A DNA stretch of 64,000 nt. It comes from an uncultured Bacteroidota bacterium. Its GTDB lineage: Bacteria > Bacteroidota > Bacteroidia > Bacteroidales > GCA-2748055. Made by a program: the position numbers and the translations under genes. Numbering within the stretch: the first letter of the stretch is position 1; each line of letters starts with the position of its first letter. The notes under the pieces were generated by a model. That model did no database searches and was not told where the DNA came from. It saw only the letters and a list, made by a program, of their open reading frames with translations. This document shows, piece by piece, positions 22,257 through 28,110 of this stretch. The DNA is taken from contig CAWANQ010000004.1 of the NCBI GenBank assembly GCA_963783435.1, forward strand, positions 948,428 through 1,012,427. The letters are read 5' to 3'.

Positions 22257-22306
22257 GTCGGGGTAGCGGATTATTCGAAACGTTTCACGTTTCTCATGAT
22301 CCCGGT
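22257..22306. repeat. 50-nt direct repeat copy A (tRNA-Pro 3'-end-like start)
   Basis: The sequence is gtcggggtagcggattattcgaaacgtttcacgtttctcatgatcccggt. It is 46/50 identical to copy B. Its first 13 nt equal the 3' terminal 13 nt, as read on the + strand, of tRNA-Pro at 40855. Confidence 0.85.
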
Positions 22307-22482
22307 GGAGGGGTGACTCAAAATAGAAAACTCCTGACATGAACATGACTTCCATATGTTAAGTTCCTGTTAAAAAGCCATTTATTACTGCCCGCTTTCT
22401 TTGGCCTTGTTAAATTGAGCCACTGACTCCTTCTTTCTTTCCGATACGTGCTGACCACACAGCATGTTAAACATACTTCACC

Positions 22483-25400
22483 ATGAAATACAAGTCCTTC
22501 TTCCCGATGGTGCTGATTTTTCTGATGATGACCATTCCTATAGCGTCTCAAACGACCTTGTCGGGCATCTATAATGAATCCATGTACCTCTCTCTGAACA
22601 ACTCTCCATACCTGGTGGTTGATTCGGCTATATTCCAGGGTCCGGAGCTTCGCATCGACCGCGGAGTAATTGTCACCTTCAACTTTCATCCCCATGCAGA
22701 TAGGAAGGCCTATATGCGGATACGCAGTCAGATTATCCTGCCTGAGGACGATGGCACTCCCCCATCCATAATTTTCACTTCAGAGAGGGACAATATCCCT
22801 TATGACCTTAACGGGGATGAAGAGGCCTCCCGCCCTGCACCGGGGGACTGGGGTTATGTTCTTTTCGACCCTATCGAACCGGACAATTACATCGTAAACC
22901 TCAATTACCTGACCTTTCGTTTCGGAGGGGGCAGGGCCTTTGGCCATCAGACCGAAAAAAGGTTGTTTCCCATGACCGCCGTTTCCGATTACAATGTGTC
23001 AGGCAGGCATGAGGAACGGATTGTCTTTTTCAGGTGCAATTTTACACAATCGGCCGGTGTGGGCTTCTCCGCAGGGATGGGGATCCTGGACGACTGCCTG
23101 GTCAGCAACAACTACCATGGCGTACAGATACTTACATCAGACGCACTTCTTAAAAACACGCTGATCGCAGAGAATGAAATGTATCCCGTCTATCTGATCG
23201 ATCCGCTTATCAAAAGGGATGACATCGATAATTACAACTCGGTTATAGACTGGTACTATAACAATCAGCTAGAAGGCAATGCTGTCAATGCAATCGCCCT
23301 GGAAGGAACCATTCGCCAGGCCCATGATGATAAAGATCCATCCAGGGGAACGACGCTTCAGAATTTCGATCTGCCCTACCTTATTACCGGGGATCTGATT
23401 ATTGATTCCCTGGATTTATTTGTGGAGTCAGGTACACTGGTTAAATTCCTTCCACAAGCTATACGCGGTAAAGCCCTGAATATTATTGCCAGAAACTCGG
23501 GAACCCTTAACGCCTACAACGACGTGATCTTTACCTCTCTGCACGACTATACACACGATCCTCAGCCTCCGGAGCGAATTGAGGCTGGTCCTGTAGCCGG
23601 GGACTGGGGCATCATTTCCACTGAAATGCCTTTAATGCTGGGGGCCACCTTCAAATACGGTGGAAAATATGTAAGTAGCGTGGACGACCGGATCAAAGCT
23701 GATTCGAGTGCGGTGCTGCACATTACCGGACCCAGGAAACGAAGTATCACCTCCATCGGCTACAATCCATGGGGGGAGGTTGAAGCTTGCGTGTTCCAGA
23801 AACTTTTCCTGCACGGGATCCAGGTTCCTTTTCCTGAACCCGGTTCAGCTACAGTAAGTATCACCGGTAACAGTTTTTTCCTGGATCAGGACAGCTACGG
23901 CATCAGAACCCATTGGGAATCTGATCCGGGAAGTGAGGAAGTAACTGCTCAGCAGAACTACTGGAACAGCAGCAAGGGCCCCTACCATCCAGAGCTGAAC
24001 ACCCAGGGGAATGGCTGCAAGGTAGACGATTACGTTAGTTTTACAGACTTCCTGAGTAAGCCGGAGAAAGGAGATCCCCTGGTTTATTCCACACTCAGGG
24101 GTATGGTTACTGACAGCAGGGGAGATCCGCTCGCAAATGCCGCCGTCACACTTAACAGCAAAAGCCCCCAGACTGTGTATACCAACAAAGAGGGGCTGTA
24201 CTATCTGCCCGGTATCACATCAGGAACAGGTTTTGAACTTGGGGTTAAGGCCAAGGCCCACAGGGCAGCAAAAATAGCCCCGGTGGACATACCTTACGAT
24301 TCCAGCCTCCTTCTCAATTTCAAACTGGAGGAGTTAAGCATCGACTATGCCATCGACAGAAACTCATTTCAAATTAACCCCGTTGAATCCATAGTCGACG
24401 TAGGTGGCACCGCCCATCGCTACTACCGCATCATCGATATCCAAACTAAAGAACCGGTGTACGGCGTGGAGATCCTGGTTCCTGGCGTGGACACTTTTTA
24501 CAGCGATACCCGGGGAATTGTGGATGTCGCCATACCCTCGTTTGCCGTAGGAATTGCCGGTAATACCAAACCATTTGAGATCGAACGGATCGGCCTGGAA
24601 ACCCTTGATATTCCTTTTGATCAGCGGGAAAAATTCACAGTTAGTGTACGTCCCTACAAATACCGTAAAATCTGGTCGGGAAGTACTTTCTTCACTGTGG
24701 GGATCTCTGGTGTGCAAGCACAAAAGGAAACGGGAGCGGCCATCGATCTTCACCTGAAGGATGAGGGTTCGGGAGCCCTTGCAGACAGTATCCGGATGGT
24801 GCGACAGAGCCGTGTCGGCTTCGGAGTAAGCCAGGGAGCCAACGCTAAAATTGAACTTGGAAGTGTGGAGGCCGGTGCAGAAGCAGGGATTGGAGTGAAT
24901 CTGGATAATATTTTCGAAGATGATTTCAAGTTCGACTACCCGAATAATACCGGTCCCCAGGCTCTGGCCAAATTTATTGTGATGGCCGATGGGGCACTCC
25001 CTTATATGAGTGCTTCCCTGACCAGGTATTTTGTGTCCGCCCTGGAAAGGCGGGTGGATGACATTGACAAAGCTGCACTGAGCAACGCCATCGGAATGAA
25101 TCTGCATGCTTATGCCAGTGCCGGGGCAAGTCTAGACCTGGATATTCTAGAAGGAGAAAAGGCCTCCCTGGGGGCAGAGATCAAAGGTTCGGCTTCCATA
25201 TCAGGCGATATCACCTATATGGCCAGAAGGGGTGCTCATAAGCATCCTGTCTCAGACAAATATCCCCTGGATCTCGATTTCAACTTTTCCAGTGAGATAA
25301 AAGCAGAGGTCGGAGCTTCAGTGGGCCTTGACCTGGGTAAACTTTTCGGAATTGACAATGACAATAAGCCCAGTGACGCCGGACACAAGGTCGATTCCAA

Positions 25401-26325
25401 TCTTCCCTTCCCGCTACCTAATGAAGATTTAAACCTTGACCTCTTTGGTGCAGAGGCTTCCGGAAGCCTAATGTTTGGTTACCATTTCGGTACGAGCCGC
25501 CTTACTAGCAATCCCTCCTGCAGGTTGGGATTCATGTACGGCTACAGTTACAAGCTTGAAGGCAAGCTATTAGAACAATCCGAAGGCCTGTCTCTAAACC
25601 GGGAGTTCACCTACTCCTTCGATATATACGACAGTGAGATCATAGAGACCATCTCTGAGGGTACAGAACTGGCAAGTTCCCTGCTTTCAGCCGACAATTT
25701 GCTTAAGCTGAATATCTCGGACCTCACTTCAGGTAAGTTTTTCAATAATCCCATGAATTCCATCGCCTACCAGCAGAGCCGGAATTCATTTACCCTGGCT
25801 CCTGTTCCTTACCGAAAGACCGTCAGCGAGAAGGTAGATGAGGGAAGTTTCAAGCTAGCCATCAACGTGGGCATAAGTGTGGTTTCCGCAAAATTTGGCG
25901 CCGGATTCAAATACAAGGAAGTCAATACCTACAAGAAGGAAAACGGCCTCTTCTATAACTGGAAACTATACCCGATGGAAAGCTATGAATTCCTTGAGAA
26001 TAATGACGAGTACAAGGCCAGATTGATCGTGCAGGACATCGTAAATAGTTCAGCCAACTACCTGGTGGATGAGGTGAGAAGGAAGATCATACCCCCCATT
26101 TTCCGCAAGATAAAGATCTGGCCCTTCAACAAAAAATTGGCTGCTACATCTATCCCCATTGGACCGGATTCAAGGTCAAGCCAATTGGTCTTTGCCGATT
26201 CCTCCACGGTGATTTACCATCGAAGGAATCGACAGCCTGGATGTCATCTACTGGGACTGGTACGGAACCGGCGAAGAGTCGGGAGTGAAAAAAGCAGCAT
26301 CCAGCCCTGCCCTGCATGCCATTAA
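22483..26325 (+). CDS. Giant T9SS surface protein, N-terminal ORF (real coding probably ends ~26211)
   Basis: Signal peptide MKYKSFFPMVLIFLMMTIPIASQ. Carboxypeptidase-regulatory-like domain (LRGMVTDSRGDPLANAAVTL). A long unassigned G/A/S-rich strand region. The last ~38 codons (IYHRRNRQPGCHLLG..) look out of frame. Confidence 0.7.
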   Translation: MKYKSFFPMVLIFLMMTIPIASQTTLSGIYNESMYLSLNNSPYLVVDSAIFQGPELRIDRGVIVTFNFHPHADRKAYMRIRSQIILPEDDGTPPSIIFTSERDNIPYDLNGDEEASRPAPGDWGYVLFDPIEPDNYIVNLNYLTFRFGGGRAFGHQTEKRLFPMTAVSDYNVSGRHEERIVFFRCNFTQSAGVGFSAGMGILDDCLVSNNYHGVQILTSDALLKNTLIAENEMYPVYLIDPLIKRDDIDNYNSVIDWYYNNQLEGNAVNAIALEGTIRQAHDDKDPSRGTTLQNFDLPYLITGDLIIDSLDLFVESGTLVKFLPQAIRGKALNIIARNSGTLNAYNDVIFTSLHDYTHDPQPPERIEAGPVAGDWGIISTEMPLMLGATFKYGGKYVSSVDDRIKADSSAVLHITGPRKRSITSIGYNPWGEVEACVFQKLFLHGIQVPFPEPGSATVSITGNSFFLDQDSYGIRTHWESDPGSEEVTAQQNYWNSSKGPYHPELNTQGNGCKVDDYVSFTDFLSKPEKGDPLVYSTLRGMVTDSRGDPLANAAVTLNSKSPQTVYTNKEGLYYLPGITSGTGFELGVKAKAHRAAKIAPVDIPYDSSLLLNFKLEELSIDYAIDRNSFQINPVESIVDVGGTAHRYYRIIDIQTKEPVYGVEILVPGVDTFYSDTRGIVDVAIPSFAVGIAGNTKPFEIERIGLETLDIPFDQREKFTVSVRPYKYRKIWSGSTFFTVGISGVQAQKETGAAIDLHLKDEGSGALADSIRMVRQSRVGFGVSQGANAKIELGSVEAGAEAGIGVNLDNIFEDDFKFDYPNNTGPQALAKFIVMADGALPYMSASLTRYFVSALERRVDDIDKAALSNAIGMNLHAYASAGASLDLDILEGEKASLGAEIKGSASISGDITYMARRGAHKHPVSDKYPLDLDFNFSSEIKAEVGASVGLDLGKLFGIDNDNKPSDAGHKVDSNLPFPLPNEDLNLDLFGAEASGSLMFGYHFGTSRLTSNPSCRLGFMYGYSYKLEGKLLEQSEGLSLNREFTYSFDIYDSEIIETISEGTELASSLLSADNLLKLNISDLTSGKFFNNPMNSIAYQQSRNSFTLAPVPYRKTVSEKVDEGSFKLAINVGISVVSAKFGAGFKYKEVNTYKKENGLFYNWKLYPMESYEFLENNDEYKARLIVQDIVNSSANYLVDEVRRKIIPPIFRKIKIWPFNKKLAATSIPIGPDSRSSQLVFADSSTVIYHRRNRQPGCHLLGLVRNRRRVGSEKSSIQPCPACH

Positions 26326-27934: not shown

Positions 27935-28024
27935 AAAGCAAACAGTTAAAAAGGGCCGTCAGAAGAAATATAAGCCGATTTCCAGATGATTTCATATTTG
28001 AACTGAGCCCAGGAATTCAATAAC

Positions 28025-28049
28025 TTGAGGAGCCAAATAGGCTCCTCAA
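28025..28049 (+). terminator. Perfect 10-bp stem-loop downstream of the giant gene (possible terminator)
   Basis: TTGAGGAGCC (28025-28034) pairs with GGCTCCTCAA (28040-28049) around a 5-nt loop, 90 nt after the stop. No U-tract follows. Confidence 0.35.
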
Positions 28050-28060
28050 ATTGGAGGGGG

Positions 28061-28110
28061 GTCAGGGTAGTGGATTATTTGAAACGTTTCACGTTTATCA
28101 TGATCCCGGT
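28061..28110. repeat. 50-nt direct repeat copy B
   Basis: The sequence is gtcagggtagtggattatttgaaacgtttcacgtttatcatgatcccggt. It is 46/50 identical to copy A and in the same orientation. Confidence 0.85.

Follow-up and report, generated by a model that had tools for sequence, protein, structure and literature searches.

Diverged direct repeats around a giant surface-protein gene as likely attachment-site remnants downstream of tRNA-Pro in an uncultured Bacteroidota

NBU1 and NBU2 have integration cores of 13-14 bp. For integrative and mobilizable elements (IMEs) and cis-mobilizable elements (CIMEs), three-step accretion and the use of secondary attachment (att) sites, the latter in the case of NBU1, have been described (PMC5704250). 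Tn6031 of Sphingobacterium, also a member of the Bacteroidota, targets the 3' end of tRNA-Pro, while NBU1 targets tRNA-Leu and NBU2 tRNA-Ser (PMC5704250, Table 1). The locus analyzed here lies on contig CAWANQ010000004.1 of an uncultured Bacteroidota bacterium, in a stretch of 64 kb hereafter called the window. Two 50-nt direct repeats, copies A and B, bracket a giant gene for a surface protein in this stretch, and a decayed tyrosine integrase stands just beyond B. We assign a probability of roughly 60% to the reading that A and B are worn att-site remnants of integrase elements targeting the tRNA-Pro 3' end, set in a tandem accretion array in which the A-B segment is CIME-like.

The closest described structures are the CIMEs and tandem accretions of the ICESt1/ICESt3 family of Streptococcus thermophilus and the IME-CIME tandems (PMC5704250). 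In the reading favored here, the present locus would share with these an integrase-less segment between direct att repeats, an adjacent unit with an integrase, and a tRNA 3' end; decay followed by renewed integration would likewise give repeated junctions of the same polarity. What sets the locus apart is that its integrase has decayed to a pseudogene remnant, that the two repeats now differ by 8%, that a truncated gene rather than an element end stands left of B, and that the host is an uncultured member of the Bacteroidota. The locus resembles NBU1, NBU2 and Tn6031 in its type of tyrosine integrase, which has an arm-binding domain at the N-terminus, and in a short core beside the integrase gene that equals a tRNA 3' end. 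In contrast to them, only remnants are present here, no relaxase or oriT mobilization genes are seen near A or B, and the likeness is one of layout and target. Integron cassettes offer a third parallel, in that direct repeats of a recombination site enclose a single gene and the array has a tyrosine recombinase gene on one side. However, the repeat is not an imperfect palindrome of the attC type (its fold is not significant) and its core is tRNA-derived, the integrase has the Arm-DNA-bind_5 / Phage_int_SAM_5 architecture rather than that of IntI, and the gene also occurs without the repeat.

The kind of structure, att-site remnants from CIME-like accretion at a tRNA gene, is thus already known, and its biological novelty is modest. 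Its interest is that an odd pattern of one gene between att sites becomes a readable history, in which several integrase-driven elements would have piled up and decayed at a tRNA-Pro hot spot in an uncultured marine Bacteroidota. The core together with its terminator-like flank is a usable signature of the integrase family and could help to delimit islands in related metagenome-assembled genomes. The locus also carries a caution, since a pair of direct repeats around a gene need not mean a cassette.

Repeat anatomy and the tRNA-Pro core

The main features, in window coordinates, are as follows; L004 is a marine metagenome contig described below.

18009-18044, plus strand: copy C, truncated, with 10 nt of L004-type left flank, a core matching the tRNA-Pro end at 11 of 13 positions and about 9 nt of arm, oriented as A and B
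22257-22334, plus strand: copy A, made of the core (22257-22269), a 37-nt arm (22270-22306), a G-rich linker and part 2 (22313-22334)
22483-27934, plus strand: giant gene for a surface protein secreted by the type IX secretion system (T9SS), with CarboxypepD_reg, fn3, cadherin and Por_Secre_tail domains and a conserved upstream region from about 22350
27943-28060, plus strand: frameshifted remnant of an ORF6N-domain gene (Pfam ORF6N, E=1.2e-8), ending exactly at the left edge of B
28061-28110, plus strand: copy B, part 1, with a core (11/13 against the tRNA end) and a 37-nt arm, its left edge cutting the ORF6N remnant
28278-28299, plus strand: copy B, part 2 (TGAATCAACATAAAAAACTCC), 167 nt past part 1 and 11 nt ahead of the integrase remnant
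28311-28645, plus strand: tyrosine integrase pseudogene remnant, in which an internal deletion has brought a SAM_5 segment next to the C-terminal catalytic end and the first ~600 nt are gone
33304-33382, plus strand: junction D, very degenerate, a copy of the terminator-like downstream flank of tRNA-Pro followed by GTCGG (33347-33351) and then ACGAAGTTCGAACC
40854-40928, minus strand: tRNA-Pro(CGG) gene, whose 3'-terminal 13 nt equal the core of A and whose downstream flank (40813-40853) is homologous to the D flank

A sequence-only reading of the window had reported two 50-nt direct repeats that share a palindrome, and this part stands in full. A (22257-22306) and B (28061-28110) are identical at 46 of 50 positions in direct orientation, far above chance, with 5804 nt from start to start. 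The palindrome GAAACGTTTC occupies 22277-22286 in A and 28081-28090 in B, and A also contains the tandem heptamer ACGTTTC x2. The distances given from the repeats to the start (22483) and stop (27934) of the giant gene are correct, and the tyrosine-recombinase fragment placed beyond B is real. Among close matches A and B stand by themselves: when up to three mismatches are allowed to a 25-nt core pattern, the 64-kb window gives just these two sites and 100 shuffles give none. Further copies do exist, namely the truncated C and the degenerate D in the window, and L004 outside it. The description of the bracketed interval as a single 5.4-kb gene did not hold, since there are two open reading frames (ORFs), 22483-26325 (1280 aa) and 26285-27934 (549 aa). 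They are split by a 1-nt insertion near 26212 (the extra A in ggtgAtttacc, 26205-26215) relative to intact orthologues of ~1800 aa, including the 88%-identical L006. The insertion site is not a homopolymer, which makes a real pseudogene likelier than a sequencing slip.

The left boundary is sharp in all copies of the repeat. To the right the unit extends past 50 nt, running in A through the G-rich linker into part 2 (TGACTCAAAATAGAAAACTCC), which recurs right of B with 18 of 21 positions matching (a score reached by 1 of 500 shuffles). Both copies have the same polarity, from flank through core to an identical type of 37-nt arm, so they mark the same kind of junction and are not an attL/attR pair. 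A Bacteroidota-type promoter ahead of the element was found at neither A nor B; weak -7-like motifs occur at L004 and C only.

A begins with GTCGGGGTAGCGG, 13 nt that reproduce the tRNA-Pro 3' end (40854-40866) exactly in reverse complement. Repeat and tRNA terminate at the same base and have the same orientation, and with one 1-nt gap allowed the identity of A to 40854-40871 is 16 of 18. The cores of B and C each match at 11 of 13 positions, again in the orientation of the tRNA. Beyond the core, likeness of the 37-nt arm to tRNA-Pro is not significant for A and marginal for B; thus the core is target-derived and the arm is not. The tRNA gene and all four tRNA-like fragments (A, B, C and D) share one orientation within the 23 kb downstream of the tRNA.

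Integrase-bearing loci, further copies and orthologues

The remnant beyond B is a decayed Bacteroidota-type tyrosine integrase, 200 nt downstream of B and outside the A-B bracket. It matches PHROG integrase families, and its two segments (window 28311-28427 and 28418-28645) match positions 9548-9664 and 10037-10264 of locus L009 at 83-88% DNA identity. There, a split integrase has Arm-DNA-bind_5 and Phage_int_SAM_5 domains above Pfam cut-offs and a weak C-terminal Phage_integrase match. The window remnant is without the box-I region and is non-functional. The small ORFs between B and the remnant have no PHROG matches, leaving an excisionase unsupported, and viral contigs yielded no intact relatives of the integrase. 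As a separate short ORF, the C-terminal ~90 aa of the integrase persists at 71-84% identity on many metagenome contigs with differing neighbors (P0026-P0033; L009-L013, L093-L095).

The association of core and integrase recurs in independent loci. L093/L095 and L094, from two samples, were retrieved solely through a homologue of the integrase C-terminus (P0026), and they contain the exact 13-nt core three times. In L093, fragments of the tRNA-Pro 3' end at 2471, 9264 and 10494 surround a decayed integrase. Site s1 lies ~170 nt upstream of the integrase ATG and is preceded by a terminator-like hairpin and a T-run, resembling the left flank of L004. Site s2 is inverted and lies ~180 nt past the integrase stop, which places the integrase gene between inverted cores; an inversion event is one possible cause. 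At site s3, identity to tRNA-Pro reaches 25 of 26. Sites s3 and s1 form direct repeats 6.8 kb apart, between which lies an integrase-less cargo (a resistance-nodulation-division efflux pump operon and HigB), with the integrase following. This order of s3, cargo, s1 and integrase is the order of A, giant gene, B and integrase remnant in the window. With the tRNA-Pro end in the core, the integrase remnant beside B and the occurrence of the core with the same integrase family elsewhere, the earlier description of the repeats as att-like is supported. The internal deletions of the integrase differ between the window and L093, that of the window lying between short AAAGAGAT repeats. A resemblance of the A left flank to the s2 flank of L093 was considered and rejected, as the 23-nt BLAST match is mostly core and a test on the flank alone is not significant.

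Outside the window, the repeat itself is rare. L004 is a 1084-bp marine metagenome contig of unrelated context, adjoining the end of a sulfatase gene. Its positions 74-149 align with A (22257-22330) over 76 nt at 91%, the first 48 nt being identical, so that its core and arm are of the A type. The left flank of L004 resembles the s1 flank (p=0.004) and also the sequence ahead of the L009 integrase, with which it shares a 33-nt region of TTTACCAC repeats (E=0.02). L004 may be a junction of the attP or attI type. It is the sole extra copy from two very large collections, of genome and of metagenome contigs. Pattern scans of public collections need an exact match to ~20 bases, and diverged copies would escape them. 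Within that scope, the scan of genome contigs gave two matches, both chance hits in coding DNA; that of metagenome contigs gave one true copy (L004) besides chance matches; and those of viral contigs gave chance matches only. BLAST of A against phages and plasmids found no match.

Two worn junctions in the window complete the set. C aligns with L004 64-95 over 32 nt at 87.5%, including the 10 nt of left flank common to both. D (33304-33351) reproduces the ~45 nt that follow tRNA-Pro, together with GTCGG, and has a terminator-like hairpin on the tRNA-sense strand; the similarity is significant against both the tRNA junction of the window (p=0.0005) and the s3 left flank of L093 (p<0.0005). The motif ACGAAGTTCGAACC that follows D also occurs in the interior of L004.

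Orthologues of the giant gene stand in three different neighborhoods, in the L006 group, L007 and L008, at 88%, 77% and 76% protein identity. The repeat and its core are both missing from these orthologous loci, upstream as well as downstream, and DNA homology to the window starts at 22349-22353, 43-47 nt right of A. The repeat is not part of the giant gene's own module. The motif ATGTTAAGTTCCTGTTAAAAAGCCATTTATTACTG (window 22350-22390), ~130 nt upstream of the giant gene ATG, is kept in all four orthologous loci despite unrelated flanks and is probably a promoter or regulatory site of the gene. The domains of the giant protein, with its T9SS sorting domain, place the host in the Bacteroidota. 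Carboxylicivirga, Draconibacterium and Mariniphaga are among the named relatives of the window proteins. The neighboring, conserved outer membrane protein (OMP) gene led to relatives at 77-89% DNA identity, which have only the OMP coding region in common with the window and no synteny around the site.

The A-B interval (22307-28060) contains the giant gene and the ORF6N remnant only, and no integrase or transfer genes. In the L006 group, an ORF6N remnant also stands 3' of the giant gene and reads on to '...SSWGG', whereas that of the window is cut at the first base of B. This marks the left edge of B as a recombination junction. The 3' half of ORF6N that is lacking there was sought within the window and not found. 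All five contigs of the L006 group (L006 and L014-L017, from independent Logan assemblies) break off inside the ORF6N remnant, their ends no more than ~10 nt apart and slightly before the position equivalent to the B left edge. This shared break point suggests that a multi-copy sequence is present there, either ORF6N genes or an element end.

A proposed decayed accretion array and the explanations set against it

In the accretion reading, A and B would be homologous copies of one element end, belonging to a family with a Bacteroidota-type tyrosine integrase. That end would combine a 13-nt crossover core mimicking the tRNA-Pro 3' terminus with an element-borne arm (37 nt, then a 21-nt segment), and in an intact element the arm would lead into the integrase gene. 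Repeated integration and decay could then have produced a tandem array over 23 kb downstream of tRNA-Pro, with a constant unit polarity of core, arm, integrase, cargo and terminator-like far flank. Unit C would begin at 18019. Unit A (22257-28060) would have lost its integrase, leaving the frameshifted giant gene and the ORF6N remnant as a CIME-like segment; unit B (from 28061) would have retained the integrase remnant; and unit D (33347-40812) would abut the tRNA gene. L004 appears to cross-link these pieces, as it joins a flank of the s1/L009 type, a core and arm of the A type and an interior motif of the D type. The sequence relationships, the association of core and integrase, the junction at the left of B and the lack of the repeat beside the orthologues are direct observations. 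From these we infer the order of events, the history as a tandem array, and the role of the giant gene as cargo or bystander.

Several observations weigh against this reading. No intact element with core, 37-nt arm and complete integrase was found, and the 37-nt arm is absent from the integrase-bearing loci L009-L013 and L093-L095, where the arms differ. The left flank of A fits no recognized flank type. B is preceded by a truncated gene and not by an element end, so an extra deletion must be assumed. B is followed by an integrase remnant and, 12.7 kb on and past D, by the tRNA-Pro gene, but the integrase is dead, and the D flank looks like, and may be, native sequence downstream of tRNA-Pro. 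If it is native chromosome, A, B and C fall outside the tRNA-linked island, and secondary-site insertions or rearrangements are needed to explain them. Genes of ordinary chromosomal appearance also stand within the proposed units, OMP and NMO in the stretch from C to A, SulP and carbonic anhydrase in that from B to D.

The rival that survives best, though we consider it unlikely, takes A and B as solo remnants of two independent insertions of related elements that happen to flank a resident giant gene, with no array and with the gene never having been cargo. The contiguity of the gene and the ORF6N remnant in the L006 group, which has no A-type element upstream, fits this account, and so does the D flank, which would put the edge of the tRNA-linked island at 33.3 kb; NBU1 is moreover known to use secondary att sites (PMC5704250). 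Four tRNA-like junctions of the same orientation within 23 kb downstream of the tRNA, and the parallel architecture of L093, speak for an array, but both would be compatible with separate insertions. The two accounts differ solely in the history that they assume.

The sequence-only reading had suggested the scar of a site-specific insertion. Developed into a model, this means a single event with a 50-nt target, by which the giant gene arrived as a cassette of its own and which left attL and attR scars at A and B. Direct repeats that tightly bracket the gene, an integrase fragment nearby and a gene neighborhood that varies among relatives are what such an event would leave. The details run the other way, and we regard it as distinctly improbable. 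Only the first 13-17 nt of the repeat resemble tRNA-Pro, and the bracket encloses the 37-nt arm of A but not that of B, in keeping with the shared polarity of the two copies. Part 2 and the integrase stand right of B, also outside the bracket, and the ORF6N remnant within it is cut by B. The further copies C, D and L004 are not accommodated either. The same reading had held that orthologous loci keeping the gene without any repeat would speak against an insertion scar, and the L006 group, L007 and L008 are exactly such loci, their homology to the window beginning only to the right of A.

The repeats have probably become inert, since the integrase, with its N-terminal 600 nt and box-I gone, is destroyed and the copies differ at 4 of 50 positions. 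The A and B sites would probably remain so unless a related integrase acts in trans. That the A-B interval is still a mobilizable single-gene unit, with an intact integrase of the same family elsewhere recombining the 50-nt sites and excising the giant T9SS adhesin gene as a circle and moving it, is a slim prospect. If true, such movement would explain the differing neighborhood of the ~1800-aa gene in every relative examined.

The sequence-only reading had named a shared cis-acting RNA or DNA element as its alternative, and a functional element common to several loci (small RNA, untranslated-region motif, operator or terminator) now seems very improbable. The conservation of a 76-nt unit at 91% between the window and L004 despite unrelated neighboring sequence, together with the palindrome and the ACGTTTC tandem heptamer, is of the kind expected from such an element. 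However, Rfam searches (across the full 64 kb at gathering thresholds, in the region of A at E<=10, and in L004 and L095 at E<=1) found nothing but two tRNAs, and the RNA and DNA folds of 50-, 78- and 90-nt units are no better than those of shuffles (z -0.1 to -2). One of the A/B differences disrupts the main stem with no compensating change, the repeat is missing both up- and downstream of the orthologous genes, and the two collections gave a single extra copy of it. Likewise very improbable is a miniature inverted-repeat or repetitive-extragenic-palindrome-like non-autonomous transposable element, or a local segmental duplication, for while the short unit has sharp boundaries and several contexts, there are neither terminal inverted repeats nor target-site duplications at A, B or L004, the left flanks of A and B have no residual similarity to each other, and the copy number is very low.

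The island beside tRNA-Pro and minor observations

The segment between D and the tRNA gene is a further feature of the locus.

33352-40812, strand not applicable: integrase-less island of low GC content (0.33-0.42), 7.5 kb, with HicB, an XRE regulator and ParE, an S74-domain protein, T9SS proteins and an M43 peptidase

Its coding content includes toxin-antitoxin modules, and its edges form an imperfect direct repeat of ~48 nt, at 33304-33351 and 40813-40858. A HicB-like ORF (40411-40863) has its stop codon inside the tRNA-Pro 3' end. To the left of D, a YjeF_N (NnrE-like) ORF at 31337-31855 has a TTG start, overlaps the end of a C10 peptidase gene and lies at a step in GC content from 0.54 to 0.40; it may be truncated at an island boundary.

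Two observations concern the sequence to the left of A. At 21693-21725 the window lacks a PepSY-like gene of ~600 nt that its closest relative, L087, with 89% DNA identity over the OMP gene, has upstream of the TonB-dependent OMP, and the start region of the PepSY gene is fused there to the start of the OMP. Farther left, a 300-nt direct repeat of 90% identity occupies 8888-9187 and 9590-9889, at a spacing of 702 nt, and could be a pair of tandem paralogous segments or an internal gene repeat.

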